A DNA stretch of 64,000 nucleotides from Bacteriovoracaceae bacterium (GTDB lineage Bacteria > Bdellovibrionota > Bacteriovoracia > Bacteriovoracales > Bacteriovoracaceae), in the NCBI GenBank assembly GCA_050247975.1, contig JBFWTE010000021.1, positions 272 through 64,271 on the forward strand, given 5' to 3'. The notes beneath the pieces are model-generated. The model did not search any database. It was given only the letters and a program-made list of their open reading frames with translations, and was not told the origin of the DNA. A program made the translations under genes and the position numbers. Each line of letters begins with the position of its first letter. Position 1 is the stretch's first letter. This document shows, piece after piece, positions 1-64,000 of the stretch.

Positions 1-583
1 AGAAATTGTAAAGAAAGACATTGAAAGGATGAAAGAGACCAGTGAGCGGATTGAGAAGATTGTAAAAGGGCTCTCAACCTTTTCACGAGATGGAAGAAAT
101 GATCCATTTTTACATACGAGTTTAAATAGCATAATTAAAAATACTCTCTCTTTTTGTGAAGCAAGATTAAAGAACAGCAATATTACTCTGATTCAGAATG
201 TAATCGATCCAAATTTAATGATTGAGTGTAGAGAGGCACAAGTTTCACAGATTCTTCTTAATTTAATTCACAATTCATTTGATGCCGTTGAAAATTTAGC
301 GGAGAAATGGATCAAGATAGATGTTGTTGATTGTGATGAAAGTGTAAAGATAATTGTCACAGACAGTGGACATGGAATTCCGGAAAACATTCAGCATAAA
401 ATTATGCAACCCTTCTTTACGACCAAAGAAGTTGGTAAAGGAACTGGCCTGGGATTGAGTATCACCACAGGGCTAGTTAAATCTCATAATGGATCTATCG
501 AAATAGATCGAAATCATCCGAACACATCTTTTGTTGTGATATTACCAAAACATCAGAAAGCATTAATTCAAAAAGTCGCTTAA
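1..583 (+). CDS. Sensor histidine kinase, C-terminal HATPase_c part (5'-truncated by window edge)
   Basis: N box (LLNLIHNSFDA), G1 (DSGHGI), F box (PFFTTK), G2 (GKGTGLGL). Frame is open back to position 2. Confidence 0.9.
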   Translation, partial: EIVKKDIERMKETSERIEKIVKGLSTFSRDGRNDPFLHTSLNSIIKNTLSFCEARLKNSNITLIQNVIDPNLMIECREAQVSQILLNLIHNSFDAVENLAEKWIKIDVVDCDESVKIIVTDSGHGIPENIQHKIMQPFFTTKEVGKGTGLGLSITTGLVKSHNGSIEIDRNHPNTSFVVILPKHQKALIQKVA

Positions 584-586
584 GCT

Positions 587-1327
587 TTACTCAATTTCAG
601 GACGAATTCCTTCACAACTTTTTACTTCTTCTTCCTCTTCATGAGAAATCTCGACATATTGGGGAAGTGCAATGAATGGAGAGTAAATTGTTTTCTTCTT
701 TGAATCATAAGCGGCAATTTCCAAGTGATACTCACCAATCAAACTGTGTCCTGCATTGAATGAGCTAGGAGCAAGTTCTGCCATTTGTGCTTTCTCCGGA
801 TAGGATATATTTTGATTTATTGATATATCAAATAGATCATTACTGCCGATGATACTCATTTTATCTATTTTCTTTCTATGATTGAAGGCGGGACATTTAA
901 AATTTCTGAATCTCTCTGATGCGTAGGCTGCAGCATAATAAATTTTAATCGCTACCGATCCAGGAGTTCCGGCCCTATCATGACCTCTTAATATCTTATG
1001 TGTTTTAAAGGGAGAATAGACTGAGCCTAAATCTTGCTTTTCTCCACCTCGATGGATAATAATTCTGATGAGCCAGGCATCGACTCCTTTAACTTGAGTG
1101 AGATGTTCTAAATCTTCTTCTTTTACTTTGGGCATATCCACAATGAAAGTTATGCTCTGAGATACTGTAGCTTCTTTTCTTTGTCCCACATGCCATTCAA
1201 TTTCTTTTAAATGTGTAAGTTCCATTTGTACTTTTTTAAGATGAAGCCCAACATCATCTTTTGAGAGTTCAGAGTACCTAGTACAAGAAAAAACGAGAGA
1301 AAGAGTCAGGTAAATAAATGCTTTCAT
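587..1327 (-). CDS. Hypothetical lipoprotein
   Basis: Signal peptide with lipobox-like VFSC. AAGGA sits 6 nt before the ATG at 1327, favouring it over 1333. Confidence 0.65.
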   Translation of the reverse strand: MKAFIYLTLSLVFSCTRYSELSKDDVGLHLKKVQMELTHLKEIEWHVGQRKEATVSQSITFIVDMPKVKEEDLEHLTQVKGVDAWLIRIIIHRGGEKQDLGSVYSPFKTHKILRGHDRAGTPGSVAIKIYYAAAYASERFRNFKCPAFNHRKKIDKMSIIGSNDLFDISINQNISYPEKAQMAELAPSSFNAGHSLIGEYHLEIAAYDSKKKTIYSPFIALPQYVEISHEEEEEVKSCEGIRPEIE

Positions 1328-1380
1328 GGCCATTCCTTTATCTAATGATATTATAAATCAAATTTAGAAAGGGAGTTAGA

Positions 1381-1662
1381 ATGAAGTACTTAGTGTTACT
1401 TTCTTTATTAGTCGCATGTGCCTCAAAACCTGAGCAATTAACAGAAAAAGCGAAGAATCTTGAGGTTTATGTTAATAAACCTGCTAATTGCAATGTGGTT
1501 GGTAAGCTCACTGGAACTGATGATATGGGAAGTAAGGAGCTTGCTTTAAATAAAGTCATGAATCAAGCAGCTGATCTTGGGGCCACAGGAGTTCATGTGA
1601 ACCAAGAAGTTCCAAATGGAAAGAAGGTTACAGTTTACGGAACTGCCTATCAGTGCGAATAA
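1381..1662 (+). CDS. Small lipoprotein, DUF4156-like
   Basis: Lipobox LVAC, Cys in PANCNVVG, C-terminal GTAYQCE typical of DUF4156; RBS GGGAG. Confidence 0.65.
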   Translation: MKYLVLLSLLVACASKPEQLTEKAKNLEVYVNKPANCNVVGKLTGTDDMGSKELALNKVMNQAADLGATGVHVNQEVPNGKKVTVYGTAYQCE

Positions 1663-2594
1663 GCTTTTTCTAATTTAGTATCAAGTGCGTGGAGTGTAGA
1701 AAGATAAGTGACCCTCATTTTTTCAAGCTCCGCGCGCACATAAGGTTTTACATTCCCACCCACCCAAATTTCAGTATTGGTGTTTAGATTTTGTTGTAAC
1801 GAATGAATATATTCCTCAAGTGACGGCTTACCCTCGAGATTATTTATCTTAGTTGAACCAAGTAAAATAATTTTAGGATGAAGGGCATTGGCCGCTTCAG
1901 ATAAAGAGATTGCCGGTAAATTAATTCCAAGAAAAATGAATTTAACGCCGTGATGAAGACATAAAAGAGCGGCCCCAAGAAGTCCGATTTCGTGTAATTC
2001 TCCCTCTGGAGCAGCAATGAGGACTAGATTTTGTTGTTTAAAATTTTTTAAATAATTTTGGTTAAGCATTGTTCCGATGTGGAATGAAATAATGGCACTA
2101 ATGGTGTGCTCTTGAGCAATACTAAGCTCATTCTTTTCAACTTTAGAACCGATGGCCTGAAAAAGTGGAATGAGAATATCCAAGCAAAATTCTCTTGGGT
2201 TTACTGAGTGGCAAATTTTATCAAGCTCATGAGAAAGAATATCTATTTTATAGGCAGAGAGTGCCAGAAGCAAATTAGTGAGAACTTTTGAATGATCGAT
2301 TTTTTCGTGATTTAATGTAATCACTTCTTTTTCATCATAAGGCCGATGAAGGAGAGTGGAATAAATTTGCTTTAATTCTTCTATTTCTAAATGAGCAATT
2401 TTACCAATGCTTTGTCCGCATTCAGTCAGCTTGAAAAGGATGGCCAATTTCTCTATATCTTTTTCAGAATACAAGCGGTGCTTATTTTCGGCCCTCTCTG
2501 GAACAACAGCATGGTATCTTTTCTCCCAAGCTCTTATGGTAGCAGTTGCGACACCTGAAAGTTGAGAGGCCACTTGTATATTAAAATATTGCAT
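1650..2594 (-). CDS. MerR-family regulator with cobalamin-binding domain (CarH/LitR-like)
   Basis: MerR HTH (TIRAWEKRY...HRLYS), EH motif (IAQEH), B12-binding ExHxxG (GELHEIG). Confidence 0.85.
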   Translation of the reverse strand: MQYFNIQVASQLSGVATATIRAWEKRYHAVVPERAENKHRLYSEKDIEKLAILFKLTECGQSIGKIAHLEIEELKQIYSTLLHRPYDEKEVITLNHEKIDHSKVLTNLLLALSAYKIDILSHELDKICHSVNPREFCLDILIPLFQAIGSKVEKNELSIAQEHTISAIISFHIGTMLNQNYLKNFKQQNLVLIAAPEGELHEIGLLGAALLCLHHGVKFIFLGINLPAISLSEAANALHPKIILLGSTKINNLEGKPSLEEYIHSLQQNLNTNTEIWVGGNVKPYVRAELEKMRVTYLSTLHALDTKLEKAYSH

Positions 2595-2638
2595 CAGAGC
2601 TCGCTAGCAAACTATAGTTTAAATAAAAGGATGAATTT

Positions 2639-4585
2639 ATGAATAACATAAAAAGCTACCCAGTGAAAAAGAATATAGAAGCCAAATCTCATCTTCAAGG
2701 CATGAAGGACTATCAAGAGATGTATCAATGCTCAATAAAGGATCCAGAAAGCTTTTGGCTTGATGCAGCGAGAAGGCTTTCTTGGTTTGAATTCCCTAAG
2801 CAAGCAAATCAAGGAGATTTTCATCGAGTGAATCATACTTGGTATTTAGGTGGAAAAATTAACGCTTCATACAATTGCTTAGACCGTCATTTAAAAAAAC
2901 ACGCTGAAAAGAGTGCCATTATTTGGGCAAAGGATGCTCCAGGTGAATATCAACACATCAGTTATCAAGAGGCCTATGAGTATGTTTGTCGGCTTACAAA
3001 TTTATTAGAGGCCAGCGGAGTTAAGAAAGGAGATAGAGTTTGTATTTATCTTCCTATGATTCCTGAATTGGTTTATTCCGTCCTTGCATGTTCACGAATT
3101 GGTGCAATTCATTCGGTGGTTTTTGGAGGTTTTAGTTCAGAGTCTTTGAAAGGCAGAATATTAGATGCTGAATGTAAATTTATTATTACTGCCAATGAAG
3201 GTCTTCGTGGTGGGAAAAGAATTCCACTAAAAGAGATTACTGATGAGGCCATTAAAGATCTCTCTTTTGTAGAGAAAGTTTTAGTCGTTCATCGCACTGA
3301 TGCTAAAGTGCCAATGATTGAAGGTCGAGATCTTCACTATGAATCTGAAATTATAAAATACCGTCCTGTTGCTCCTTGTGCGACGATGGATGCAGAAGAT
3401 CCATTATTTATTCTTTATACTTCTGGATCTACCGGAAGACCTAAGGGTGTTCTCCACACGACTGGCGGTTATTTAACTTATGCTTCATTCACGCATCAGT
3501 ATGTTTTTGATTATCATGAAAGTGATGTTTATTTTTGTACCGCTGATATTGGATGGGTGACAGGACACTCATATGTTGTTTATGGGCCTCTTAGCAATGG
3601 AGCAACCACAGTTCTATTTGAATCAATTCCTACTTACCCAGATGCTGGACGGTATTGGCAAATTGTACAAGATTTAAAAGTTAATATTTTTTATACAGCT
3701 CCTACTGCACTAAGAACTTTAGCGCAATTTGGAGATGAGCTGGTTAATAAGTATGACAGATCAAGTATCAGAATTCTTGGAACTGTTGGTGAGCCTATCA
3801 ATCCAGAAATTTGGAAATGGTATCATGATGTTGTCGGTGAACAAAGATGCGATATTGTAGATACTTGGTGGCAAACAGAAACAGGTGGAATACTTATTAC
3901 ACCGATTCCGGGTGTCACTCCGACTAAACCAGGATCAGCAACTCTTCCGTTTTTTGGTGTTGAGCCAGTGATCGTGAAACCAGAAACAGGTGAAGTTTTA
4001 AAAGGTAATGATGTTGAAGGTGCCCTTTGTTTAAAACATTCTTGGCCAGGCCAAGCTCGCACTATTTATAAAGATCACTCTCGTTTTGTGGATACCTATT
4101 TTACTCAGTACAAGGGGATGTATTTTACAGGTGATGGCTGTCATCGCGACGAAGATGGCTACTATTGGATTACTGGCCGAATCGATGATGTATTAAATGT
4201 TTCAGGTCACCGTTTAGGAACTGCAGAAATAGAAAGTGCTTTGATGGAGCATCCTCATGTTGCTGAAGCTGCAGTTGTAGGAATGCCTCATGATATTAAA
4301 GGTACAGGAATTTACGCTTACGTCATCCTTTATGAAGAACATCAAGATAGTCCTGAATTGCATGAGAGCATTAAAGATAAAGTGCGAGAAATTATCGGAC
4401 GATTTGCGGCCCCAGATATCATTCATTTGACCAGAGGGCTTCCAAAAACGCGATCAGGAAAAGTGATGCGAAGGATATTGAGAAAAATTGCAGCGGCCGA
4501 GTATGATGGATTGGGAGATATTTCAACCCTTGCGGATCCTTCTGTTGTGGAGAACATTGTGAAGGAGCATAAAACAAAAAAATAA
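2639..4585 (+). CDS. acs: Acetyl-CoA synthetase (AMP-forming)
   Basis: [41 protein letters not shown]; 648 aa. Confidence 0.96.
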
Positions 4586-4594
4586 GGAGTGGAG

Positions 4595-5080
4595 ATGGAA
4601 CTTAAAGGTTCATGCTCATGTGGTGGAGTCTCATTTAAAGTCCAATCACAAACACCTTATCCTTATCAGCGATGTTACTGCAGTATTTGTCGTAAGACCC
4701 AAGGAGGTGGAGGTTATGCCATCAACCTTGGGGCCGATTATCGAACTCTCAAAGTTAAAGGTAAAAAAAATATTGCTGTTTATCGTGCTCGCGTAAAAAA
4801 TCCAGGCGAGCGATCCTATCAAAGCTCAGGAGAGCGAAACTTCTGCAAAATTTGCGGATCAGGACTTTGGCTTTATGATCCCAACTGGCCAGAGTTGGTT
4901 CATCCATTCGCTTCGGCCATTGATTCTTCTTTGCCTATCCCTCCAGAGCAAACTCATTTAATGTTAGAATTTAAGGCCTCATGGGTTGAAATCCAGAAAA
5001 AGAAAAAAGATAGAATTTTTAAGAAATATCCTAAAGAATCGATTAGAGAATGGCATGAGAGATTGAATTTGGTCAGTTAG
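4595..5080 (+). CDS. GFA/CENP-V family Zn-binding protein
   Basis: GSCSCG, CYCSICRK, RNFCKICGS. RBS AAGGAG favours the ATG at 4595. Confidence 0.88.
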   Translation: MELKGSCSCGGVSFKVQSQTPYPYQRCYCSICRKTQGGGGYAINLGADYRTLKVKGKKNIAVYRARVKNPGERSYQSSGERNFCKICGSGLWLYDPNWPELVHPFASAIDSSLPIPPEQTHLMLEFKASWVEIQKKKKDRIFKKYPKESIREWHERLNLVS

Positions 5081-5139
5081 AGGGATGTAAAATTTACTAA
5101 GCCCCTCTCACATTTATAATTTTTGGCTAGATTGGCGCC

Positions 5140-6474
5140 ATGAAAATTCAATTCTTCATTCTCATTTCTTTCTTTTCGTTTTCTTCTTTTGGCAGGGCCT
5201 TTATTTCCGATTCCTCTGAGATTGAAATTGGAAGATTGAATCGAAATATTTCATCCCAAATGATGCTGGTAAAATTAAAAAATCAATCTCAAATTGATCT
5301 AAAAAATTATGGAGAGTTTGAGACATTTTTTAAAGCTCATGATGGTGTTTGGGGATATTTAAAATTAAACATGATCCCCGATGAAGAAAGTGCAGAATTA
5401 TTATTAAAAGATTTTTCAAAAAATAAAAATATCCTTCATGCTTATTTTGCTCCTTTGCCTCGTAATGCAACTGAATCAGATCCAGAACCAACAGATCCTG
5501 TTTTAGTTGAAACTCCTAACTTTGAAGAAAGACAATTCTATTTAGAAGATGCCCCGAAGGGGGTTGGAGCGAGAAGTGCCTGGCCAATTCCTGGTGGTGC
5601 TGGGAAGAATGTTAAAGTGATAGATGTTGAAACCTGTTTTCAAGATGATCATGAAGATTTCATGGCCCCTTTTTTTAATGGGAATAACCCTGCCTGCTCT
5701 GAAAATGACCACGGTACGGCCGTTTGGGGTGAGATTGCAGCGAAGAAAGATGACAAAGGTGTCACAGGAATTGCCCATCAGGCCCAATTTGGAATTTATG
5801 GATTTATTGAAGGTGATCTTGAGGAAGTAGATGATCAGTATATTAAAAGCATCAATGAAGCGATTCAAGCTTCTATTCAGAATCTTGAGCAAGGTGATGT
5901 CTTAGTTATTGAGCAGCAGATGGTTGGCCCTGATCTTAAAAAGTATACGGCCGTCGAGTATTGGCCACATATTTTTGATCAATTAAAAATGGCGACTGAT
6001 AAAGGAATTATTTGTGTTGAGGCCGCTGGTAATGGTGGATCAAATTTTGATGATCTAAGTTACGATGGCGCCTTTGATTTAAGCAAGAGAGATTCAGGCT
6101 GCATTATAGTTGGGGCGGTTGCTCCTTCTTCTTTAGATCGACTTGGATTTTCAAACTACGGCAATCGTTTAGATGCGGCCGCTTATGGCCGAATGGTAAC
6201 CACTGCTGGCTACGGCGATCTTTTCAATGCGGCCGTAAACCGTAAGTATACGGCCAGATTTTCTGGTACATCTTCTGCCACTCCTATCGTTGCTGGAGCA
6301 GTTGCTGTGGTTAGCTCAATTGCTAAAGAAAAAGGCATTACTATTTCTCCAAGAAATATGAGAGATGCTTTAAGATTAACGGGAACACCACAAAGTGAAA
6401 GTACTCGTTCCACTCGAGTGGGGAATCTTCCTTCCATTCAAGCTCTCTTAGATATATTGCAGCTTACACTTTAA
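5140..6474 (+). CDS. Secreted subtilisin-like S8 serine protease
   Basis: Signal peptide; triad D (IDVE), H (DHGTAV), S (FSGTSSATP); oxyanion AAGNG. Confidence 0.92.
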   Translation: MKIQFFILISFFSFSSFGRAFISDSSEIEIGRLNRNISSQMMLVKLKNQSQIDLKNYGEFETFFKAHDGVWGYLKLNMIPDEESAELLLKDFSKNKNILHAYFAPLPRNATESDPEPTDPVLVETPNFEERQFYLEDAPKGVGARSAWPIPGGAGKNVKVIDVETCFQDDHEDFMAPFFNGNNPACSENDHGTAVWGEIAAKKDDKGVTGIAHQAQFGIYGFIEGDLEEVDDQYIKSINEAIQASIQNLEQGDVLVIEQQMVGPDLKKYTAVEYWPHIFDQLKMATDKGIICVEAAGNGGSNFDDLSYDGAFDLSKRDSGCIIVGAVAPSSLDRLGFSNYGNRLDAAAYGRMVTTAGYGDLFNAAVNRKYTARFSGTSSATPIVAGAVAVVSSIAKEKGITISPRNMRDALRLTGTPQSESTRSTRVGNLPSIQALLDILQLTL

Positions 6475-8516: not shown

Positions 8517-8530
8517 AGTTACCTCAATAT

Positions 8531-8565: not shown

Positions 8566-8601
8566 AATTTTGAGTAAATCAAGGTCTTCTGGCAAATTAA
8601 A

Positions 8602-24167: not shown

Positions 24168-25109
24168 TTACAATCCAAGAAACTTTGAGACTTTTAAAAA
24201 GATGAGTTCGCGCTCTTTAAGTGGATGAAAGGTCGTTTTGAGAGGATCACGTTTAAACCAAGTTCTTTGAGATTTGGCGAGTTGTCTGGTGGAAATAATA
24301 ATTCTCTCTCTACATTCAGAAATGGATTTATAGATCCCAAAATGGAAATCGAGAATTTCTTTATATCCAATAGATTGAAGAGGTTTTTCTAGTCCACTAA
24401 AACCTTGATCCAGAAGAGACTTTACTTCGCCCAGAAGATCAAGTCCTAGCATCTTATCAGTTCTTCTCTCAATTATTTTAAGATGTTCTTCTTTTGGTAA
24501 ATCAAGATGAAGATGAAGTATTTCCCAATTATGGATACTTTGTGATTCTAATTTTTCATTGGCCTGATCTTTTTTTTCTCTTGCTGTTGAGAGTGGAGTT
24601 TTATTGGCCCACCAATGTTCAACCGCCCGTCTTATCCGGTAATGATCATTCTCATGATAGCGAGAAAAACTTTGTGGATCGTGTATTTTCAAAAGTTCGA
24701 GAAAAGGAGCAATCCCTTCTTGATGATAAAGATCATCAGATTTTTTTAAAATCTCAGCAGGGGTAGAAGGGGAATCGTACATTCCTTTTAAAAGGGCCTG
24801 AAGATAGAAACCACTTCCACCTACGAGGTAAACAATCTTATTTTGTTTGAGAAGTTGATCGACTATGGGTAAGGCCTCACGAGCATAATCTGCTGCGTTC
24901 ATTGGATTTGATATGCTTCGTACATCAATCATATGATGAGGAATAAGTCTTCTCTCTTCGATTGTAGGTTTTGCTGTTCCAATATTAATTTCTTTATAAA
25001 GTAAAAGAGAATCGAAATTGACGATTTCCCCGCCAAACTTTTGAGCAAGTTCAATGCTGATTTCTGTTTTTCCTGTTGCTGTTGGACCTGAGATGACAAT
25101 GACTTTCAC
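24168..25109 (-). CDS. miaA: tRNA dimethylallyltransferase
   Basis: GPTATGKT, NFDSLLLYKEINIGTAKP, VGGSGFY, QSIGYKE, QLAKSQRTWF. Confidence 0.95.
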   Translation of the reverse strand: MKVIVISGPTATGKTEISIELAQKFGGEIVNFDSLLLYKEINIGTAKPTIEERRLIPHHMIDVRSISNPMNAADYAREALPIVDQLLKQNKIVYLVGGSGFYLQALLKGMYDSPSTPAEILKKSDDLYHQEGIAPFLELLKIHDPQSFSRYHENDHYRIRRAVEHWWANKTPLSTAREKKDQANEKLESQSIHNWEILHLHLDLPKEEHLKIIERRTDKMLGLDLLGEVKSLLDQGFSGLEKPLQSIGYKEILDFHFGIYKSISECRERIIISTRQLAKSQRTWFKRDPLKTTFHPLKERELIFLKVSKFLGL

Positions 25110-26698
25110 TTTAATCGATCCTTTAACAAGGCCTCTAATTCAGCAATGATTTTTTTCTCTATCAGAACATCAATTTTAAAATGAGTCAGCATTTCATGCC
25201 AGGTCGAAGAAGCCCATTCAGCAGGAATTAATTTTAATTCAGTAAGTTTTTTTTCTTCCAGGAGATGACTGACAATATCCCTTAATGGAAAACCATTCAT
25301 CCAATCGGGAATGGCCCTTAGTACCAGTGTTTCAGCTCCTAAATTTTCAATCTCGAATCCTGCATTTTGAAGTTTCAGGATGACTTCTTTACTCACTCCT
25401 CGAGAAGGGTATGGCTCACTTACTAATAATGGAATACTTAAACTTTGAGTATTCATTTTATTGGAGACAAATTCTTCCAAGAGTTTTGAGCAATTAATGG
25501 CCATCCAATTCATTTCATATTTTGTCATTAGAAAATTTCCAACCCAATAAAAATCGCTTTTTTCTTGTTGGATATTGTGAGGAGAAAAAAGTCCTTCCAT
25601 ATTGTAATCATGTCTTTGCTGAAGCAAAGAAGGGGGAGCATCTTGGAAGGAAGACAGAAAATCGGATGGAGGTAAAGGAGTAGAAGAAACTGGTGAAATC
25701 GGTTTTCTTCCTTGAGCAAGCTCTTTAATGGTGGAAGAAAGCAGACTAATCATCTTTGATGTTTCTAAACATTTAATGAGAGTTTTATTTGGATGCACAT
25801 TAACATCGATGTGATCCGCTGGAAGATGAAAGAAAACAAGATAATTATATTCTTCTTCGCCAAAGGATGAAATTAGAGCATTGCTTAATACTTTATGTAG
25901 CTGTTTATCTAGAACATATCTCCCATTGATGAAGATGTATTGCCATTTAATGGGAAGTTTTAAAAAAGAGGGAATGAGATAAACCTCGAGCTCATTGTCT
26001 TCATAAAATTTTTCAGAATAAAGAAGTAATCCTTTAGATTTTGGGACTATTTCTTCTATCCTCGTTTTTAAATCTTGAGCTGCATGGAATATTTCTTTCT
26101 CGTCATCTTCAAATTTAACAATAAATTCAATTTGAGGGTGTGAGAGAATAAAAGCGTAAATAGTCTTTTTTAGAAATTGCTTTTCTGCTTGTTGAGTTTG
26201 GATAAATTTCAAACGGGCAGGTGTATTAAAGAACAAATCTTGAATGACTAGTTCAGTACCTTGATTACCCTGAACTTGCTTCTTGCCATGGTAGATTGTT
26301 TGTCCACCTTCAATTCGAATTTCAGATCCTTCACCGCTACTCAGATAAGAATGGCATTGTACTCTGGCAATGGCAGCGATTGAGGCCAATGCTTCACCTC
26401 GAAATCCAAATGAGTGCAATTGATAAAGATCTTCGAATCGTTTAATTTTGGAAGTTGCATGACGAGAGAATGCCAACGGAAGATCATTAAATGTCATTCC
26501 ATGGCCATTGTCTTTTAATGAGATAAGATCTAGTCCATTATTCTTTATATGAAGTTCTATCCTGGTTGCTCCAGCATCGATAGAGTTTTCTAAAATTTCT
26601 TTGATTAAACTTCCTGGCCGCTCGATTACTTCTCCGGCCTTAATCTGATCTATCAGATGTTCTGGAAGTAAATCGATTTTAGGCGGAGAGAGAGTCAT
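25106..26698 (-). CDS. mutL: DNA mismatch repair protein MutL (short C-terminus)
   Basis: IKAGEVIERP, ENSIDAGAT, DNGHGM, HATSKI, GFRGEALASI, DVNVHPNK; adjacent to miaA. Confidence 0.92.
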   Translation of the reverse strand: MTLSPPKIDLLPEHLIDQIKAGEVIERPGSLIKEILENSIDAGATRIELHIKNNGLDLISLKDNGHGMTFNDLPLAFSRHATSKIKRFEDLYQLHSFGFRGEALASIAAIARVQCHSYLSSGEGSEIRIEGGQTIYHGKKQVQGNQGTELVIQDLFFNTPARLKFIQTQQAEKQFLKKTIYAFILSHPQIEFIVKFEDDEKEIFHAAQDLKTRIEEIVPKSKGLLLYSEKFYEDNELEVYLIPSFLKLPIKWQYIFINGRYVLDKQLHKVLSNALISSFGEEEYNYLVFFHLPADHIDVNVHPNKTLIKCLETSKMISLLSSTIKELAQGRKPISPVSSTPLPPSDFLSSFQDAPPSLLQQRHDYNMEGLFSPHNIQQEKSDFYWVGNFLMTKYEMNWMAINCSKLLEEFVSNKMNTQSLSIPLLVSEPYPSRGVSKEVILKLQNAGFEIENLGAETLVLRAIPDWMNGFPLRDIVSHLLEEKKLTELKLIPAEWASSTWHEMLTHFKIDVLIEKKIIAELEALLKDRLK

Positions 26699-31206: not shown

Positions 31207-31350
31207 ATACCATCCATCCTTTTAATAGAAGCCAAAGTGTAGCGGAAAAATCAGTTTTTGGGAAATGTGAAGCATTCAATTATTTTGATACACTTCCTAT
31301 CATCTCTTACGTTAAAATGGCATAACGCTTTTAAATTTCTCGGAGTCATT

Positions 31351-33048
31351 TTGAATTATCTGGAAACTTCTAAAGATCAAGAAGATCTAGTTCATCCTGG
31401 TGAGCAGTGGTTTTTCTATTGGAAAACTTCCGCGGCCCTATGGGAAGGAAAAATTCTTGAACGCCCTCTTGAAGAAGTTATTTTTATTCCCATTTATTGG
31501 GGATTTCATGCAGAGTCTCCTGGCAAATGGGATTTTGGTCAGATTCATCCTGAGCGAGATCTTTTGAGGTTAACGAATTTAATGACGCAGCACAAGCGAA
31601 AGTTTTGTTGGTTGCTTCCTCTTACGCCGGCCCCTTTCTTACCCAATGGAGGAGTGCCTGCTCATACGGCCCGTACGCTGAGTATTTCGATTGATGGTGT
31701 GCATCTTGCTGCAATCGATCAGGAGCAAAAGCTTAATAAAATGTTTTCATTTTTTGAGCCCAAAGTTTGGGAAGCTTTCGGACAATTTCTTAATAGTTTT
31801 GCTCAGTTTTTAACTATCAATAAAATTAAATCTCCTGTTTGGGGAGCAGAATTTAGCTATGTGGAAGGCAGTAAAATAATAAGTTATTTGACTGATAGGT
31901 CACTGGCCTTCGAACAAGGATTTTCACGCTACTTAAAACAAAATTTTCCTCAGGGAACAGATCTATCCGAAATTCATCAAGAAGAGCAATTAAAGTCGAA
32001 TTTTTTAGATGATGTGTTTAAGTTATTTAAAACAACTGCTGAATCATCTCTTGCTCCATTTTGGATGGGGATGCAATCAATTTGTCTACTAGGTGGGGGG
32101 CCAAAAGATACGATTCAGCGCTCATTAAAAGAAAATAAGACTCAGCTGGATTTTTTTAGAGATCTTTTTTTTGTTAACTCGGAAAGCTTATGGCCTAGCT
32201 CTGCGCTGATGATGAAAGAAGAGAAGAAAAACCTCTTTGTTGAGTTTTTAAGAGAGCATTTTTCTTCACGTGCCATTGATGAAAGATATAACTATTCTAT
32301 TCATTCTAAATTTCTAGGTGAAGAATTTCGTCCATTTTCTTTAATTGATATTTTTGGTTCAAATCATTGTGGACTGATTAATTATTTGGATACCTACTTC
32401 AGATGGCTTTATCAAGTTCACGGAGAATTAAACTTTACAACTGAATGGATAGAAAATAACCAATACAAAATTAAATTTTTTCACTCTCGTTCACTGAATC
32501 GAACGAGTTTTAGTCAGATGCTTAAACTTTTTCTTATGGGAGAAAAAGTTATTCTGGATAAAACCCAACTTCATCCAGAACTAGAAAAGCGTTTACAAAT
32601 ATTTATTTTGGAAAATAATCTAAAAATTCAGTCCATTAATTTTCTTACTCCCGTTTCAATTGTTGAATTAGGGGAAGGAAGATTGATAACTTATGAAGGT
32701 GATAAGTTTAAAAATAAAGAAGAACAAAATAAATTTTGGGAACATCTCTTTAGATATTTGAATCTCGCTCATCCATTGATCAAATTAGATCAGGATGTTT
32801 TTTCATTATGGAGAATAAGAGCAACCTCTCCATTTGAGTTAAATTATCTCGATGTCAGAAGAGTGAATCTTTATAATCCTACCAGCTATAAGAAGAATGT
32901 TTATATTCAGACTCAAAAACATTTTGCCTTTATGAAAATGATAGATCCCTTGAAGGCCCAAGCAAAATCAACTCCTCACGGGGTCGAAGTGGAGCTTCTT
33001 CCTCAAGGCAGAATAGCATTGGATTTTGGTCACTATGAGGAGAGTTAA
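31351..33048 (+). CDS. Hypothetical protein with GH35/GH42 beta-galactosidase-like N-terminus
   Basis: IPIYWGFHAESPGKWDFG...RDLLRL...NGGVP. TTG start at 31351 with GGAG RBS. Confidence 0.55.
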   Translation: MNYLETSKDQEDLVHPGEQWFFYWKTSAALWEGKILERPLEEVIFIPIYWGFHAESPGKWDFGQIHPERDLLRLTNLMTQHKRKFCWLLPLTPAPFLPNGGVPAHTARTLSISIDGVHLAAIDQEQKLNKMFSFFEPKVWEAFGQFLNSFAQFLTINKIKSPVWGAEFSYVEGSKIISYLTDRSLAFEQGFSRYLKQNFPQGTDLSEIHQEEQLKSNFLDDVFKLFKTTAESSLAPFWMGMQSICLLGGGPKDTIQRSLKENKTQLDFFRDLFFVNSESLWPSSALMMKEEKKNLFVEFLREHFSSRAIDERYNYSIHSKFLGEEFRPFSLIDIFGSNHCGLINYLDTYFRWLYQVHGELNFTTEWIENNQYKIKFFHSRSLNRTSFSQMLKLFLMGEKVILDKTQLHPELEKRLQIFILENNLKIQSINFLTPVSIVELGEGRLITYEGDKFKNKEEQNKFWEHLFRYLNLAHPLIKLDQDVFSLWRIRATSPFELNYLDVRRVNLYNPTSYKKNVYIQTQKHFAFMKMIDPLKAQAKSTPHGVEVELLPQGRIALDFGHYEES

Positions 33049-56425: not shown

Positions 56426-56465
56426 TTTATCAAAGGGACATTCGTCCCTTCCTCTATAGTTAACT

Positions 56466-56852
56466 TTATTTTAAATGATCTGGAGTAAATGCCGAAGTGA
56501 GGAATTCACCCAGCTTCTTAGTCATTTCTTTTCCATTCTTGTCGCCACAGGTGATTTCCAAATCGAGAGTCGCAAACTCTGTCATCACTTGGAGGCACAT
56601 GCCACAAGGAGGCCAGCCGGCCTCAGTGTAGACATAAACTTTTTTAAGTTTCTTATGTCCCTCTGAAACAGCTTTCCAAATCGCCACTCTTTCAGCGCAG
56701 ACAGTGCCACCGTAACTTGAATTTTCAATGTTACAACCTTGATAGAAATGGCCATCACTTGTTTCAATGGCCGAACCTACTTTGGCCTTTGAATAAGGCG
56801 AGTGAGCACGAGTGGAAGCATCTATGGCAAGTTCACGTAGATTTTTACTCAT
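56466..56852 (-). CDS. cdd: Cytidine deaminase (homotetrameric type)
   Basis: SPYSK..VG, GCNIEN, VCAER, PCGMC. Confidence 0.95.
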   Translation of the reverse strand: MSKNLRELAIDASTRAHSPYSKAKVGSAIETSDGHFYQGCNIENSSYGGTVCAERVAIWKAVSEGHKKLKKVYVYTEAGWPPCGMCLQVMTEFATLDLEITCGDKNGKEMTKKLGEFLTSAFTPDHLK

Positions 56853-57685: not shown

Positions 57686-57694
57686 ATAGTTTCC

Positions 57695-59017
57695 TTAGCT
57701 CAATTTTTCTTGAATTAATTTAGGAGATCTCACTTTAGTTTTAGAAAAAGTCACAACTTCTTTTAAAAAAGTGTTTTTAATATTTTCAACGATCTCATTT
57801 TGATAAGGGTGATGGTAGACCGTCATAATGGCCTCACCTTTCTTGACCTGATCGCCAATTTTTTTATGAAAAATAAAACCAACTCCATGATCAATCACAT
57901 CGGTTTTAAATTTTCGACCTCCACCAAGCTCAATTAAGAGAAGTCCTATTTTATCATTTTGAAACATTTTAATGTATCCAGACTTCGGAGCAAGAATTTG
58001 TGTCGTCACTTGGGCCTGAGGAAGAAGTGAATAATCATCGATGACTTTATCATCACCACCTTGGGATTGAATGAGTTTTCTAAATTCTTCGAGGGCCTTT
58101 CCACTTGAGACCATGAGTTCAGCTTTTTTAAGGGCCTTATCATAAGTTTTTTCGACACCTGCTAAATGAATCATGTGTGCCGAGAGTGCCAACGATAGAT
58201 CAGTTAAATCTTTTGGCCCGTGACCCTTGAGAGTTTCAATTGATTCAATAATTTCGTGAGTGTGGCCAACTGCATTTCCAAGAGGTTGATCCATGTCGGT
58301 AATGAGAGCAACGGCCTTCTTTTTAAATCTTTTGGCCGTTTGAATTAGACTTTTTCCCAGTGCTCGAGCGTCTTTTTTCTCTCTCATAAAGGCACCGGTA
58401 CCAGTTTTGATATCAAAAACTATTCCGTTAGCCCCTTCGGCCAATTTTTTACTCATGATTGAAGCGGTAATAAGAGGAATAGAATCAATAGTCGCTGTGA
58501 CATCTCTAAGAGCATAAATTAAACGGTCTGCAGGGGCGATCTCAGGTGTTTGTCCAATAAGTACTAATCCATCTTTATTTAATTTTTCTTGAAAGACTTT
58601 TAAATCAAGAGAGGTTTTGAATCCTTTAATGGCCTCAATTTTATCGACTGTTCCACCGGTATGGCCCAAGCCTCGGCCAGCGATCATGGGAACTTTCACT
58701 CCGGCCGCAGAAGCAATAGGGGCAAGGACAAAAGAAGCCTTGTCACCAATTCCTCCAGTGGAGTGTTTATCAATGACATTTTTACCAGTGAACTTAAGTT
58801 GTTCTCCTGATTCCAGCATAGCATCGGTTAAGGCCGCTGTTTCAGTTACTTCCATGCCTTTAATAAACATGGCCATTAACATTGCTGACATTTGATAGTC
58901 AGGAATTTTGCCATCAGTATAGTTTTGGATGAACCACTTAATTTCGGCTTCGGTTAATTTTTGTCCCTTCTTTTTTTTGTCAATAAGGGGATAGACTTGA
59001 AAATTTTCTTTACTCAT
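57695..59017 (-). CDS. pdp: Pyrimidine-nucleoside / thymidine phosphorylase
   Basis: DKHSTGGIGDK, GRGLGHTGGTVDK, LYALRD-like LIYALRDVTAT, SIMSKK. Confidence 0.94.
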   Translation of the reverse strand: MSKENFQVYPLIDKKKKGQKLTEAEIKWFIQNYTDGKIPDYQMSAMLMAMFIKGMEVTETAALTDAMLESGEQLKFTGKNVIDKHSTGGIGDKASFVLAPIASAAGVKVPMIAGRGLGHTGGTVDKIEAIKGFKTSLDLKVFQEKLNKDGLVLIGQTPEIAPADRLIYALRDVTATIDSIPLITASIMSKKLAEGANGIVFDIKTGTGAFMREKKDARALGKSLIQTAKRFKKKAVALITDMDQPLGNAVGHTHEIIESIETLKGHGPKDLTDLSLALSAHMIHLAGVEKTYDKALKKAELMVSSGKALEEFRKLIQSQGGDDKVIDDYSLLPQAQVTTQILAPKSGYIKMFQNDKIGLLLIELGGGRKFKTDVIDHGVGFIFHKKIGDQVKKGEAIMTVYHHPYQNEIVENIKNTFLKEVVTFSKTKVRSPKLIQEKLS

Positions 59018-59118
59018 ATAAACTCACTAAAAAGATAACTCGTTTGCCAACTTTAAGATGGGCACTTATCATAGTCTTAAGGCATACCATTGGCAAACTT
59101 TGTCCCCAAGGACTTGAT

Positions 59119-59541
59119 ATGAAAAAGCTTATTTCCATAATACTTTCCCTTCAATTTTTATTGATGATGCCGGTCATGGCGCAAGACGAAGGAGAGTCAG
59201 CTCCTGAAGATGATTTTCTAAAAAATACTCAACAAGATGTGATGATTGTGGCCGGTGCGGCCGTCGCAGGGGGAGTGATTGGTCTTTCAACTCTTTCGTT
59301 TGTGGATAAACCAAGTAAGCACATGTCCAACATTTGGACTGGAGCTGCCGTGGGTATGATTGCAGGTGTTATTTTTGTTGCCTATAACAGCGCACAAAAA
59401 GGCCAGGAGGAGCTGATTGATGAAAGTGCCAGCCTCGATTTTAATAGTTCTGAAAGAGCTGATTGGCACTTTGCGAGCAATTCATATAAAAATTCACAAA
59501 TTAATACTTTCGAAATCCCTTTTTGGCAGAAAAGCTTCTAA
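59119..59541 (+). CDS. Hypothetical secreted/membrane protein with two Gly/Ala-rich helices
   Basis: Signal peptide; VAGAAVAGGVIGL and TGAAVGMIAGV; likely start is the ATG at 59119. Confidence 0.65.
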   Translation: MKKLISIILSLQFLLMMPVMAQDEGESAPEDDFLKNTQQDVMIVAGAAVAGGVIGLSTLSFVDKPSKHMSNIWTGAAVGMIAGVIFVAYNSAQKGQEELIDESASLDFNSSERADWHFASNSYKNSQINTFEIPFWQKSF

Positions 59542-59557
59542 ATTCTTAGACTTTAAC

Positions 59558-59587
59558 TTGCCATCTATTTAATCGTTTGAGTATAAC
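59558..59587 (+). promoter_or_regulatory. Sigma70-type promoter of nupC
   Basis: TTGCCA-N18-TATAAC (same hexamers as the rpsT promoter). Confidence 0.5.
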
Positions 59588-59625
59588 CCCATGAGTTAGA
59601 CTTAAAACATTTATTAGGATGGCTT

Positions 59626-60843
59626 ATGGAAAAACTTATTTCCTTTGTTGGACTTTTCGTTATGGTGGGCGTGGCCTACGCTCTTTCAGAAAATAAAAAA
59701 GCAATTCAATGGAGAACAGTCATCACTGGAATTCTTCTTCAAATCCTTTTTGGTTTAGTTATTTTAAAAACAGGTTTTGGAAGAATGGTTTTTTCATCAA
59801 TCGGAGAAGGCTTTAACGCTATTCTTGGTTACACAGGTGAAGGGGCAAAATTTTTGTTTGGTGGTCTTGCTGCCCCAACAGAAAGTTTAGGATTTATTTT
59901 TGCGACGATGGTTCTTCCAACCATCATCTTCATGAGTGCGCTCATGTCAGTTCTTTATCATATTGGTGTTATGCAAAAAGTAGTGGAAGTCGTGGCGAAA
60001 GTGATGATGAAGGCCATGAGAACTTCAGGGGCCGAATCTCTTGCATCGGCCGCAAATATTTTCGTTGGTCAAACCGAAGCCCCTCTGGTGATTAAGCCTT
60101 ATGTTAATCATATGACAAAGTCAGAACTTATGTGCCTTATGACTGGTGGTATGGCCACTGTTGCTGGTGGTGTTCTTGCTGCCTATGTGGGCTTTGGAAT
60201 TGACGCTGGCCACCTACTTGCAGCTTCTGTGATGAGTGCTCCTGCGGCACTTGTTTGTGCAAAATTAATGGTGCCTGAAACAGAAGAATCTGAAACGGCC
60301 GGTGTAGTAAAAGTTGAGCTTCCAAAGATGGCGACAAATGTGATTGATTCTGCGGCCACAGGTGCTTCAGATGGATTAAAACTTGCTGTTAATGTTGCAG
60401 CGATGCTTTTGGCCTTTATTGCCTTAATTGCGATGTTGAATGGAATTCTTCGCGCTCTTGGTGGTCTTTTTGGTTTTGAAAATCTAACTTTTGAATTGAT
60501 CATGGGCTACATTAATGCGCCTGTGGCCTGGATTATCGGTGTTCCTTGGGAAGATTGCTTAAAAGTAGGCGCGATCCTTGGGAAAAAATTAGTTCTTAAC
60601 GAATTTGTCGGATATCTTGATCTTAAAGCATCAATGGGCTCAATTTCTGAGCGTTCTACAATTTTAACCACCTACGCACTGTGTGGTTTTTCGAATTTTT
60701 CATCTATTGCGATTCAGCTTGGTGGAATTGGAACCATGGCACCAGATAAACGCCCTGTTCTGGCCGCCTACGGTATGAAGGCACTTATCGGTGGAACTCT
60801 GGCCTGCTACATGACAGCATGTATTGCCGGGCTTTTTATTTAA
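59626..60843 (+). CDS. nupC: Concentrative nucleoside transporter (NupC/NupG, CNT family)
   Basis: ANIFVGQTEAP, GGMATVAG, LVLNEFVGY, LCGFSNFSSI. Confidence 0.94.
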   Translation: MEKLISFVGLFVMVGVAYALSENKKAIQWRTVITGILLQILFGLVILKTGFGRMVFSSIGEGFNAILGYTGEGAKFLFGGLAAPTESLGFIFATMVLPTIIFMSALMSVLYHIGVMQKVVEVVAKVMMKAMRTSGAESLASAANIFVGQTEAPLVIKPYVNHMTKSELMCLMTGGMATVAGGVLAAYVGFGIDAGHLLAASVMSAPAALVCAKLMVPETEESETAGVVKVELPKMATNVIDSAATGASDGLKLAVNVAAMLLAFIALIAMLNGILRALGGLFGFENLTFELIMGYINAPVAWIIGVPWEDCLKVGAILGKKLVLNEFVGYLDLKASMGSISERSTILTTYALCGFSNFSSIAIQLGGIGTMAPDKRPVLAAYGMKALIGGTLACYMTACIAGLFI

Positions 60844-60905
60844 GTCTTTTTTCGGTATCCTAGTACTAATTACAGTTTAAAAGTTTTTAGTATTAGGACA
60901 TTCAC

Positions 60906-62483
60906 ATGGCAAAAGAGTTAGTGGTCAACCAGACTCACACGGAGTCGCGTATTGCGCTCATAGAGAATGGTGAGATCTTAGACTTCCTTATTGAGAGACA
61001 TTCTCAAAAAAATGAATCCTCCCCAGTTGTTGGCAATATTTATCTTGGAAGAGTTCTAAGAGTTCTTCCGGGAATGCAGTCAGCATTTGTGGATATTGGC
61101 CAAGAGCGGGCCGCCTTCTTATATGTGGACGATGCTTACATTCCAACATTGGAAGAGCAAAGAGAAATGCAAAATCGAGTTGAATCAACTGAGGCCGGAG
61201 CAAAACGTTTAGGCGAAGTTATTCCTGATGAATTTTCTACTCTAACTGAAACAGTAGATATGAAATTTCGTCCTGATGTAAGGATTCAAGATTTTCTCAA
61301 AGAGGGTGATGAGATTGTGGTTCAAATCGCGAAAGAACCTATTTCAACCAAGGGCCCTCGAGTTACTCGTCATATCACTTTGGCAGGCCGTCACATCGTT
61401 TACATGCCGTTTATTGAGCATACAGGTGTTTCTCGAAGGATTGAATCAGAGGAAGAAAGAAAGCGTTTAAAAGATATTTTAGATTCTGTTCGTCCTGAAG
61501 GTGTCGGTGTTATTGCCCGTACAGTGGCCGAAGGTCAGAGTTATAAAGTACTTAAAAATGACTACAATAATTTAGTGAAGATCTGGAAAGATGTTCAAAA
61601 GAAATTGGAAAAGGCCAAGGCCCCAGTTGAATTACATCAGGATCTTTCATTTATTCAGCGTGCTCTCCGAGACATTATGGATGAGGATGTGGATAACTTG
61701 ATCGCTGATTCAAAAAATGCAGTTAAGCAGATTGAAAAATTCATTCAAAGATTTATTCCTCATCATAAAGCTAAAATTAAATTTTATGATGGTGAAACAC
61801 CTATCTTTGAGCATTATGGAATTGATATCGAAATTGAAAGAGCTCTTTCAAATCAGGTTTTCTTAAAGTCTGGTGGATCAATCAATATTGATCAAACCGA
61901 AGCACTTGTATCGATTGATGTTAATACTGGAAAATTTGTTGGAAAGAAAACTCTCGAAGAGACGATTCTTAAAACAAACCTCGAAGCAGTCAAAGAAATT
62001 TCTTACCAACTTCGAGTGCGAAATTGCGGTGGAATTATCATTATTGATTTTATTGACATGGAAAAAGAAGAGCATAGAGCGCAAGTCTATGCGGCCCTTC
62101 TCGAAGCACTGAAAAAAGATCGCTCTAAAACTAACGTACTTCCAATTTCGGGCCTTGGTCTGGTTGAAATGACGAGAAAGCGAACGAGAGATACTTTAAT
62201 TCGCACGATGTGTGAGCCGTGCCCTTATTGTGAAGGTGTCGGAAGAATTAAATCAGTTGTAACAGTGAGTTTTGAGATTATTCGTGAACTTCAAAAAGTG
62301 ATGAAGCGATCAAATGCTTCGAAAATTACACTTTTTGCTCATCCTGAGGTTTGTGCCAAATTATCTTCAGAGGATTTTGGAATTATTGAGGTATTGGAAG
62401 AGACATTCAATAAGACCTTACTGGTTCGTGCAGACAACAACTATCACGCTGAGCAGTACGAGATTTACGCGCCGGAGAATTGA
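60906..62483 (+). CDS. rng: Ribonuclease G (Rne/Rng family)
   Basis: GNIYLGRV..VLPGMQSAFVDIG, TKGPRVT, IDVNTG, RNCGGIIIIDFIDM, CPYCEG; no RNase E-type C-terminal scaffold. Confidence 0.92.
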   Translation: MAKELVVNQTHTESRIALIENGEILDFLIERHSQKNESSPVVGNIYLGRVLRVLPGMQSAFVDIGQERAAFLYVDDAYIPTLEEQREMQNRVESTEAGAKRLGEVIPDEFSTLTETVDMKFRPDVRIQDFLKEGDEIVVQIAKEPISTKGPRVTRHITLAGRHIVYMPFIEHTGVSRRIESEEERKRLKDILDSVRPEGVGVIARTVAEGQSYKVLKNDYNNLVKIWKDVQKKLEKAKAPVELHQDLSFIQRALRDIMDEDVDNLIADSKNAVKQIEKFIQRFIPHHKAKIKFYDGETPIFEHYGIDIEIERALSNQVFLKSGGSINIDQTEALVSIDVNTGKFVGKKTLEETILKTNLEAVKEISYQLRVRNCGGIIIIDFIDMEKEEHRAQVYAALLEALKKDRSKTNVLPISGLGLVEMTRKRTRDTLIRTMCEPCPYCEGVGRIKSVVTVSFEIIRELQKVMKRSNASKITLFAHPEVCAKLSSEDFGIIEVLEETFNKTLLVRADNNYHAEQYEIYAPEN

Positions 62484-62529
62484 ATTATTGGCCCTCTTTT
62501 TATATAGATGCTTAAAAAAGAGAGGGCCA

Positions 62530-63084
62530 ATGAAAGCATTGTTTACACTATCCTTAGTTCTATTTAGTTTTTTTGCCCACTCTGCTGATGTTATTATCGT
62601 TGCTCCCGTTAAATTCAATATAGCCACAGAAGATGCTTTTAATAAGTTAGAGGAATCTATTCATCGTCCTCAAGGAATTCTAGAGAAGTTTATTCCTTAT
62701 GGAGTGAGTTATCGAAATAAAGTAGTTAAAGATAATTATTTTGAAATGGTTGCGACCAAGAGAGTTCTTCTCTTTACAAGAACCATTGATCTTCGTGGGC
62801 TCTTTAATGTTAAAGAAGTAAGCAGTGATGCTGAAAAGCATTGTTATGATGTGAATGTTGATTTTGCTCAATCAAGTCCACTTCTAAGTGATAACTTTAA
62901 TTTATTAGAGATTAATTTTTGTGCAGTCGAAAAAAGTAACAGTGACTTAGAAATTACTGTCTCTCCTAAAATTTACAAGGGGAACAACTATGATGTTGTT
63001 CTTGGCCCCGTTGTAAAAAATATTTTATTAGATCAAATTGCACCAATTATTGAAGCTGTAAAAGAAGATGTTGAAACAAAATAA
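62530..63084 (+). CDS. Secreted hypothetical protein
   Basis: MKALFTLSLVLFSFFAHS signal peptide. The track start 62314 overlaps rng and is unlikely. Confidence 0.7.
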   Translation: MKALFTLSLVLFSFFAHSADVIIVAPVKFNIATEDAFNKLEESIHRPQGILEKFIPYGVSYRNKVVKDNYFEMVATKRVLLFTRTIDLRGLFNVKEVSSDAEKHCYDVNVDFAQSSPLLSDNFNLLEINFCAVEKSNSDLEITVSPKIYKGNNYDVVLGPVVKNILLDQIAPIIEAVKEDVETK

Positions 63085-63106
63085 CGGGAGGGTCCGTTAT
63101 TTTGTT
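63075..63106. terminator. Bidirectional terminator hairpin containing both stop codons
   Basis: 13-bp stem AACAAAATAACGG-GAGGGT-CCGTTATTTTGTT. Confidence 0.8.
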
Positions 63107-64000
63107 AGTTCTTTGATTTCTGTTTTAATCTTTTCAAGTAGCTGATCTTTGTCTTCAGCTTTCTCTACAAAATCAAGATTTGAAAAAGCAGATGCCAGAG
63201 TTTTCTCTAGGCCCTTTTCAACTCCGATTAATTTTAAAAAACGCTTGGCCTTCAATGCACCATCAAGATATTTTTCTGTCCAAATGCGAGTAGAATGATT
63301 CGATCCATCTACCACTTCTGGTAAATCAATTTCGCCCAATTTACCTTTGGTGATAATAAAGATAAGGGCCTTGGCCTTTTGCTTGATACTCATTTCTTTT
63401 TTATCTGTGAGATTCTTTAAGGCAAGAGCTGAAAGGATATCCACGCGTGCCTTAACCAGTTCAATCATGATTTCGCGATACATTCCATTAGTGAGTACCT
63501 CTTCGTAAGGTTTAAGGGCCTCTGAGTTCGTATGATCTTTTAGCAAGGCCCCTTTTACAAGATCATAAAATGAAGTTGTTGGAATATTTAACTTCCGGGC
63601 CAGATCTTCTTGATAAGGATGATTAAGATGCATTGAACCGGCCAGAGCATAAAATGACGTTTCCATTGCATGCTTTCTACCAGAATTAGTCGGCGACATC
63701 TTTTCAAGATTGACCTGCTCATACATATCGACCATTCTGCGAGTAAATTCATTGGCGGCATCGAGGTAAAGTTCATAAAGAAAATCTTTGTTGTCAGCTC
63801 CTGTTCCTGTCCAAAGTTGAAACTCAAAACCTTTAAAATAAATCGCAGCTGCTGCGAATTTTGCTCCCGCATCGACCTCATCATCGTTTAGGATCGCAAA
63901 TTTTCTATTTCGGGTTTCTTCAGATTCTTTGTTCCGAATCTGCTGATACATAGTCGTGGTGACATCCTTCATATCTTGAGTCGTTTGCGAAACGGCACTG
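63097..64000 (-). CDS. Hypothetical helical protein (5'-truncated by window edge)
   Basis: Frame stays open from 63972 to the window end; no motif recognised. Confidence 0.7.
   Translation of the reverse strand, partial: SAVSQTTQDMKDVTTTMYQQIRNKESEETRNRKFAILNDDEVDAGAKFAAAAIYFKGFEFQLWTGTGADNKDFLYELYLDAANEFTRRMVDMYEQVNLEKMSPTNSGRKHAMETSFYALAGSMHLNHPYQEDLARKLNIPTTSFYDLVKGALLKDHTNSEALKPYEEVLTNGMYREIMIELVKARVDILSALALKNLTDKKEMSIKQKAKALIFIITKGKLGEIDLPEVVDGSNHSTRIWTEKYLDGALKAKRFLKLIGVEKGLEKTLASAFSNLDFVEKAEDKDQLLEKIKTEIKELTK

Follow-up and report, generated by a model that had tools for sequence, protein, structure and literature searches.

A family-wide excess of GGCC in Bacteriovoracaceae and a proposed methylation-linked conversion of GGCT/AGCC

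We analyzed a 64,000-nt stretch of DNA from a Bacteriovoracaceae bacterium (the window; C21:272-64271 of an assembly of 3.84 Mb and 37% GC) in which the tetranucleotide GGCC is strongly over-represented, and we followed this excess through the host genome and its relatives. The skew is independent of translation and consists of a single transition that drains GGCT and its complement AGCC into GGCC. Three traits share a common boundary: an orphan C5-cytosine methyltransferase (MTase), a MutL protein devoid of its nuclease motifs in the absence of MutH, and GGCC as the most extreme word of the genome. On balance, and with modest confidence, we favor a mechanism whereby a site-specific bias of mismatch correction acts on the DNA itself and converts GGCT/AGCC to GGCC, by way of the orphan MTase and a nicking enzyme that is neither Vsr nor MutH.

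Size and direction of the GGCC excess

Word counts were compared to the expectation from base composition (observed/expected ratio, o/e0) or from a second-order Markov model (Markov o/e). The window holds 379 GGCC sites, compared to 77.3 expected from its mononucleotide composition and 188.6 expected from the Markov model (z = 19, the highest of all tetranucleotides), and the runners-up are GGCT (89 sites, z = −13.4) and AGCC (71 sites, z = −13.0). Every 4-kb bin is enriched (o/e0 between 3.2 and 5.9) and the density is uniform, which bears out the original prediction of an excess across the window; the hand counts in two short stretches on which that prediction relied were exact:

1–64000, no strand assigned: DNA with a uniform excess of GGCC (379 sites) and a deficit of GGCT (89) and AGCC (71), by tetranucleotide counts and Markov z
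58081–58920, no strand assigned: 13 GGCC, 3 CCGG and 0 GCGC, within a pyrimidine-nucleoside phosphorylase gene (57695–59017, minus strand)
63181–63660, no strand assigned: 8 GGCC, by counts

Throughout the genome we counted 19,188 GGCC sites (o/e0 4.17, Markov o/e 1.90, z = 123), accompanied by a depletion of GGCT/AGCC (Markov o/e 0.42, z = −89). A test for depletion had been suggested for both pairs of neighboring words, and depletion was found for this pair and not for GGTC/GACC, whose Markov o/e is 0.94 in the whole genome and 1.00 in intergenic spacers. The enriched word is exactly a tetramer, as the ten NGGCCN classes are each 3- to 5-fold up and the flanks carry no extra preference. This equal enrichment and the even density along the window rule out a longer motif or a repeat element. 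According to the window's tetranucleotide counts, GATC statistics are normal.

We determined the contribution of coding sequence using crude gene calls that cover 89% of the genome and underlie all phase and codon statistics. The original prediction had noted that GGCC often arises from codon pairs of the form xxG-GCC and, indeed, 69% of coding GGCC lies in this phase. Alanine following a G-ending codon is encoded by GCC in 65.5% and by GCT in 5.0% of cases, compared to 20% and 46% following T, while GCC falls to 7% following A. Likewise, lysine, glutamate and glutamine codons end in G in 86% of cases before GCC, compared to 11–40% before the other alanine codons. The C:T ratio at synonymous sites is thereby shifted roughly 30-fold. 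Even so, the excess does not vanish after codon and dicodon correction. The phase-specific Markov o/e of GGCC in the three codon phases is 1.38, 1.52 and 2.25; the corresponding values are 0.71, 0.83 and 0.15 for GGCT and 0.54, 0.65 and 0.25 for AGCC, while GGTC/GACC stays at about 1. Short intergenic spacers (959, totalling 110 kb) give an o/e0 of 5.19 and a Markov o/e of 1.86 for GGCC, with GGCT at 0.41. A codon or dicodon artifact is therefore ruled out: because the skew is the same in spacers, in all codon phases and on both strands, it is not translational.

We then took 18 outgroup samples of similar GC as a baseline for the neighboring words. Compared to this baseline, GGCT and AGCC together are down by about 3.5 sites/kb and GGCC is up by about 2.9 sites/kb, a mass balance that fits a pure GGCT/AGCC to GGCC conversion. 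The remaining neighbors lie near the baseline (ratios of 1.01 for GGCA, 0.90 for GGTC, 1.06 for GGAC, 1.20 for GGGC and 1.02 for AGCT). Since only GGCT/AGCC is drained, the footprint amounts to one transition alone, at the outer position (T to C on one strand and A to G on the other), and it depends on the remaining three base pairs of GGCC.

The pattern fits a mutational or repair pressure that is resisted by selection, rather than a set of selected functional sites. GGCC is conserved at 20% of orthologous positions, compared to 22–31% for control words. The rpoBC/ribosomal-protein cluster shows the least bias, together with stretches that resemble accessory islands; about 5% of the genome's 5-kb bins are near the GGCC baseline, and these include the rpoBC/EF-Tu/ribosomal-protein cluster, while others resemble accessory DNA. 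Relatives share only about 72% identity in syntenic DNA. Their synonymous sites are thus saturated, and each lineage must be maintaining the bias actively.

Clade boundary, the orphan methyltransferase and MutL

The original prediction had treated the bias as a feature of one genome; it belongs instead to the whole family Bacteriovoracaceae. In a comparison of RNase G, the host genome falls next to Peredibacter, with 94% identity to Peredibacter sp. HCB2-198 (Bacteriovoracaceae, Bdellovibrionota). We calculated word statistics of relatives from samples of about 2.5–22 kb, mostly 10–20 kb. Across about 50 Bacteriovoracaceae loci with 28–62% GC, the Markov o/e ranges from about 1.0 to 2.2 for GGCC and from 0.28 to 0.87 for GGCT. 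The footprint was not found in 28 genomes of other Bdellovibrionota families (GGCC mean about 0.95, GGCT about 1), nor in 32 Desulfuromonadales loci. Its strength is uneven within the family, with one genome, G093, at an extreme (o/e0 4.5, GGCT 0.28). A literature search found no paper on this bias, nor any methylome, for these predators.

The genome encodes one full-length chromosomal C5-MTase (377 amino acids as called), which keeps its catalytic motifs, including PCQ, ENV and QxGNAVPP. It is a core gene, found in 150 of the 151 genomes of the class and in all 57 genera (57/57) with 45–83% identity. No orthologue was found outside the order, where 137 of 154 genomes gave no match and the remainder gave generic C5-MTases with at most 35% identity. 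Comparing its gene neighborhood with those of relatives revealed no nuclease neighbor, and synteny is gone beyond the genus. The same genome's only MutL, at 530 amino acids, lies in the window within an ordinary mutL-miaA arrangement:

C26:19650–20852 (L004:7648–8853, minus strand): orphan C5-MTase, PF00145 match at 9e-73
25106–26698, minus strand: mutL, ATPase domain intact, C-terminal domain lacking both nuclease motifs
24168–25109, minus strand: miaA (isopentenyl diphosphate transferase), directly downstream of mutL

Where the endonuclease motif DQHA(x)2E(x)4E is expected, MutL reads NWMAINCSKLLEEFV, and CPHGRP is absent. We aligned 31 MutL sequences, from 11 Bacteriovoracaceae, the sister-family genome G052 and 19 genomes of 12 other Bdellovibrionota families. 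Both nuclease motifs are missing in 11 of 11 Bacteriovoracaceae and in G052, and they are kept in 18 of the 19 outside genomes, the exception being an isolated degenerate case (G154). The genome has no second MutL with nuclease motifs. MutH (PF02976) is not found in it and occurs in only two of the 151 genomes of the class, while MutS is canonical. The data directly support a footprint of defined direction, its independence of translation, its clade boundary and the coincidence of that boundary with the MTase and the loss of the MutL motifs.

The Vsr or MutH partner that had been proposed for the methylase does not appear in this genome. A six-frame search gave no match to Vsr (PF03852, TIGR00632) or DUF559, and tblastn with five Vsr proteins of the clade gave none either. 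Vsr occurs in only six of the 151 genomes of the class, and the footprint here, in a genome without Vsr (GGCC/GGCT 1.90/0.42), equals that of the Vsr-bearing genome G122 (1.82/0.37). No nuclease gene lies next to mutS or mutL. Just two HhH-GPD proteins are present, an ordinary Nth and one that is MutY-like, with a score against the MutY model just under the curated cut-off; a family search of the genome found no extra HhH-GPD glycosylase and none that is Mig-like.

Two further genomes bear on what the MTase does. G052 (0.9 Mb, 29% GC) carries an MTase orthologue with 43% identity and, as here, a HiPIP gene nearby. In this genome GGCC is the most depleted tetranucleotide, with 64 sites in 496 kb (1 per 7.7 kb; Markov o/e 0.32, z −11), and alanine following G is encoded by GCC in 0.5% of cases. 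Thus, GGCC is extreme in Bacteriovoracaceae and, with the opposite sign, in G052, and both MTase-bearing lineages single out this word. Compared to background, too few GGCC sites have been lost in G052 for gains in neighboring words to indicate the methylated cytosine. The second genome, G030, contains an integrase-linked cassette (L201:2239–6930, G030:C3) that consists of a 376-amino-acid open reading frame (ORF), a paralogue of the core MTase with 65% identity over the full length, and a genuine Vsr. The presence of the paralogue beside a genuine Vsr indicates that this family of MTases modifies DNA to 5-methylcytosine (m5C) and that T:G repair can act at its sites. No Pfam family matches the 376-amino-acid ORF, which may represent the cognate restriction enzyme; a homology search with this ORF found no counterpart nuclease in the host genome.

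Several neighbors of these genes were considered as partners and rejected. A putative endonuclease beside the G052 MTase was not borne out, as the neighboring proteins are of a secreted type, rich in Asn, and have no counterpart by homology in the host genome. A divergent 125-amino-acid ORF near the host's MTase is a Tat-signal HiPIP-like protein. Two families recur beside the MTase, one a lipoprotein and the other a degenerate ABC-ATPase-like protein, and neither was accepted as a conserved partner. The latter (220–280 amino acids; L106:8882–9589 and homologues) is uncharacterized and has no homologue in this genome; in 7 of 20 genomes of other genera it lies directly upstream of the MTase and in the same orientation.

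We also noted several separate features of these proteins and genomes. In all MTase orthologues of the family (L099–L118), a Lys-rich linker is followed by a conserved C-terminal [K/R]-x-A-F-x-Y, for example KNAFHY, EKAFVY or STAFLY, which resembles a short motif by which a partner protein could dock; the C-terminus of the sister-family copy has only a weak version of the peptide (KSLTF). A second C5-MTase copy in the host genome, of 297 amino acids and without the C-terminal motifs (contig C29:44284–45567; L005:6956–8571), adjoins a fragment of a DUF4096 insertion-sequence-family transposase and a DUF3560 protein. It is probably the decayed remnant of a mobile restriction–modification (R-M) system, and the whole C29 contig has a weaker GGCC excess (o/e0 2.8–3.2). 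G052 has a second C5-MTase (G052:C1:61688–62725) and a MutL of only 445 amino acids, and MutS was not found in the 55% of its genome that was examined. Its genome is strongly CpG-depleted (o/e0 of 0.05 for CGCG, 0.15 for ACGT and 0.25 for GCGC).

A proposed mechanism and its alternatives

According to the mechanism that we favor, the orphan C5-MTase would mark GGCC, at the outer cytosine if the footprint is a guide. A nicking enzyme from outside the Vsr and MutH families would then resolve an outer-position T:G (or A:C) mismatch at an otherwise intact GGCC towards G:C. Such a correction would both reverse the deamination of methylated cytosine and convert genuine GGCT/AGCC sites after replication errors. 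As MutL has no endonuclease site and MutH is absent, the nicking enzyme would plausibly be MutL-dependent and also serve general mismatch repair (MMR). G052 could then be a case without correction, where the MTase was kept and GGCC decayed, and the family member G115, which has no footprint, could be a case where a third factor was lost or balanced. We infer that GGCC is methylated, that the MTase targets it and at which cytosine, that methylation is needed, and that a nuclease of this nature exists. The earlier proposal of a methylase with biased repair thus survives in its general form, by virtue of a genome-wide conversion footprint at the DNA level and a conserved C5-MTase candidate, and fails in its HaeIII and Vsr details.

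A bolder version of this mechanism, which we offer tentatively and consider rather doubtful, is that Bacteriovoracales run an m5C-linked MMR. MTase-marked GGCC would be its signal, MutL would have given up its nuclease, and a MutL-activated nicking enzyme, a hybrid of MutH and Vsr in character, would prefer the strand that carries the intact GGCC, a preference that would add GGCC to the genome.

Several observations weigh against the favored mechanism. A search for a HaeIII-like MTase had been suggested, and the target-recognition domain (TRD) of the candidate cannot be aligned to that of M.HaeIII (1DCT), as only the catalytic blocks align (query residues 11–176 and 299–347). Its best annotated relative, with 39% identity, belongs to a Neisseria cassette that combines a C5-MTase, a D12 N6-adenine MTase and an HNH nuclease, and is not NgoPII; the names of relatives were uninformative. 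Because the TRD cannot be aligned and the best relative is this cassette, homology cannot give the MTase's specificity. To our knowledge, all characterized GGCC C5-MTases methylate the inner cytosine, and outer-cytosine methylation would be unprecedented. Within the family, G115 shows no footprint over 100 kb, although its MTase is intact and its MutL nuclease-dead. A switch of specificity in G115 is ruled out, as it has no other outlier word at all; therefore, these two components are not sufficient. Outgroup G154, with its degenerate MutL nuclease site, is also without the footprint. Family search, gene neighborhood and homology all yielded no candidate nuclease, NucS and SRA-domain proteins not having been sought. 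Finally, E. coli Dam/MutH is not known to enrich GATC, so that methyl-directed MMR alone need not create sites.

The closest published idea is Elhai's ratchet (PMC4390886). Applied here, it states that m5C in GGCC is the strand signal of MMR, that errors on the daughter strand which happen to create GGCC are methylated early and kept, and that sites accumulate as a result. A nuclease-dead MutL, the absence of MutH and a core orphan MTase are the arrangement that was postulated for it (PMC4390886), and a palindrome enriched in all frames and in spacers is what it leads one to expect. However, a ratchet predicts gains from every neighbor that can create a site, whereas GGTC/GACC, GGCA/TGCC, GGAC and GGGC remain at baseline and only the outer transition is drained. 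In addition, G052 keeps the MTase and has far too few GGCC sites for a strand signal, and the lack of GATC enrichment by Dam/MutH counts against a ratchet as well. We consider it unlikely as the explanation here.

Slightly less likely still is a bias that does not depend on methylation. A context-specific repair enzyme or the error spectrum of a polymerase would produce the skew, and the MTase would be merely co-inherited, with another target or role. The specificity of the MTase, which homology does not assign, and its presence in the footprint-free G115 leave room for this explanation, and several traits that arise on one branch will share one boundary. Yet the bias requires the full 4-bp palindrome (AGCT stays unaffected and the NGGCCN classes do not differ), a requirement typical of enzymes descended from R-M systems. 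GGCC is also the top outlier, with the opposite sign, in the sister lineage that shares the MTase, and the MTase family is found in a cassette with Vsr.

We regard it as very improbable that GGCC is a functional word under selection, for instance a structural mark or one for protein binding or self-recognition. The enrichment is large, uniform and family-wide, as such a mark might be, but single sites are not positionally conserved, only one class of neighbors is drained, the most constrained and highly expressed genes show the least bias, and G115 does without it. The last and least credible proposals, that codon-pair or translational selection accounts for the 69% of coding GGCC in the xxG-GCC phase, or that the bias is the relic of an ancestral Vsr that survives in 6/151 genomes and is now lost here, are already contradicted, as an equal skew is found in spacers and on both strands, the saturation of synonymous sites would have erased any relic, and the Vsr-less host matches G122.

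Comparison with known systems and further observations

In E. coli Dcm/Vsr (CCWGG), as here, a conserved C5-MTase is accompanied by the footprint of a sequence-specific T:G to C:G correction, in which the word is enriched and its T-containing neighbor is drained (CTWGG/CTAG in E. coli). The present footprint comprises the outer-position product only and, unlike in Dcm/Vsr, the drained neighbor implies the outer cytosine of GGCC. Further differences are the lack of a Vsr-family protein, an MTase that is unlinked to any nuclease, and a far stronger effect, as judged by the roughly 30-fold shift of C:T at synonymous sites. E. coli MutL binds and stimulates Vsr (PMC2715241). In Caulobacter, the solitary cytosine MTase ScmA (YGCCGGCR) is tied to a mismatch endonuclease, VsrA, that is encoded elsewhere (PMC12907096); VsrA is a Vsr-like DUF559 / PD-(D/E)XK protein, while neither DUF559 nor Vsr was found here.

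The cyanobacterial highly iterated palindrome (HIP) offers a second parallel. In the model for HIP, the palindromes are a by-product of methylation-linked (GmeC-dependent) mismatch repair by an unidentified nicking enzyme (PMC4390886). As with HIP1, GCGATCGC, and its alternates, a GC-rich palindrome is over-represented here in all frames and in spacers, alongside an orphan MTase. Unlike HIP1, the word is a 4-mer, and neighbor depletion is confined to one transition, which the Elhai model does not predict. Beyond HIP, the nuclease-dead MutL and the absence of MutH provide independent genomic support for an unusual MMR.

Compared to the methyl-directed MMR of E. coli (Dam, MutH, MutS), the order shares a MutL without endonuclease motifs, a canonical MutS and a clade-wide orphan DNA MTase, a candidate source of a strand mark. 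It differs by lacking MutH, by having a C5-cytosine enzyme in the place of Dam, and by the strong enrichment of its presumed signal word, as GATC is not enriched in E. coli and is normal here. M.HaeIII-type enzymes and M.MthTI are GGCC-directed cytosine methylases, and M.MthTI, from an archaeal plasmid, is accompanied by the T/G glycosylase Mig. The present system departs from both in its TRD, in that the inner-cytosine product GGTC is not drained, and in having no Mig-like glycosylase. It also departs from HaeIII-type R-M systems in that it has no conserved endonuclease neighbor and GGCC is enriched rather than avoided. HaeIII is blocked by GG(m5C)C and is not known to be blocked by GGC(m5C); therefore, the HaeIII digestion that the original prediction proposed would probably miss methylation of the outer cytosine.

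Strand choice in MMR without MutH is usually credited to the built-in nuclease of MutL, and this order has neither. Cytosine-methyl-directed or HIP-type repair, a hypothesis of long standing, would if true be directly testable in the culturable Peredibacter starrii, Bacteriovorax stolpii and Halobacteriovorax marinus. An m5C-linked MMR would be the first methyl-directed MMR that does not follow the Dam/MutH paradigm, and would give Elhai's mechanism for cyanobacterial HIP a concrete example. The codon statistics suggest that, within a single dinucleotide context, biased repair can set the choice among synonymous codons about 30-fold, which bears on models of codon usage, on gene design and on tetranucleotide-based binning of these genomes. 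GGCC density may flag recently acquired DNA in Bacteriovoracaceae, with the caution that highly expressed core genes are also GGCC-poor.

Three GGCC-poor stretches (C11:50001–80000, C7:55001–80000 and C24:1–20000) have an o/e0 of 0.7–2.3, compared to a median of 4.3. Among them are the rpoBC/EF-Tu/ribosomal-protein cluster, a low-GC polysaccharide-synthesis cluster and one mixed stretch, the last of which includes a 724-amino-acid ORF with Cys-rich N-terminal motifs of a metal-binding type. Elsewhere in the genome's word statistics, the Markov o/e is low for GGATCC (0.53), GGWCC (0.69), GCCGGC (0.67) and GTCAA/TTGAC (0.63), and high for GTCAC/GTGAC (1.35) and GGTCAA/TTGACC (1.42); the palindromes on the low side may reflect restriction avoidance. 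Two ORFs of the window have no NCBIfam match, one of 596 amino acids on the plus strand (31258–33048), which has no Pfam match either, and one of 291 amino acids on the minus strand (63097–63972).

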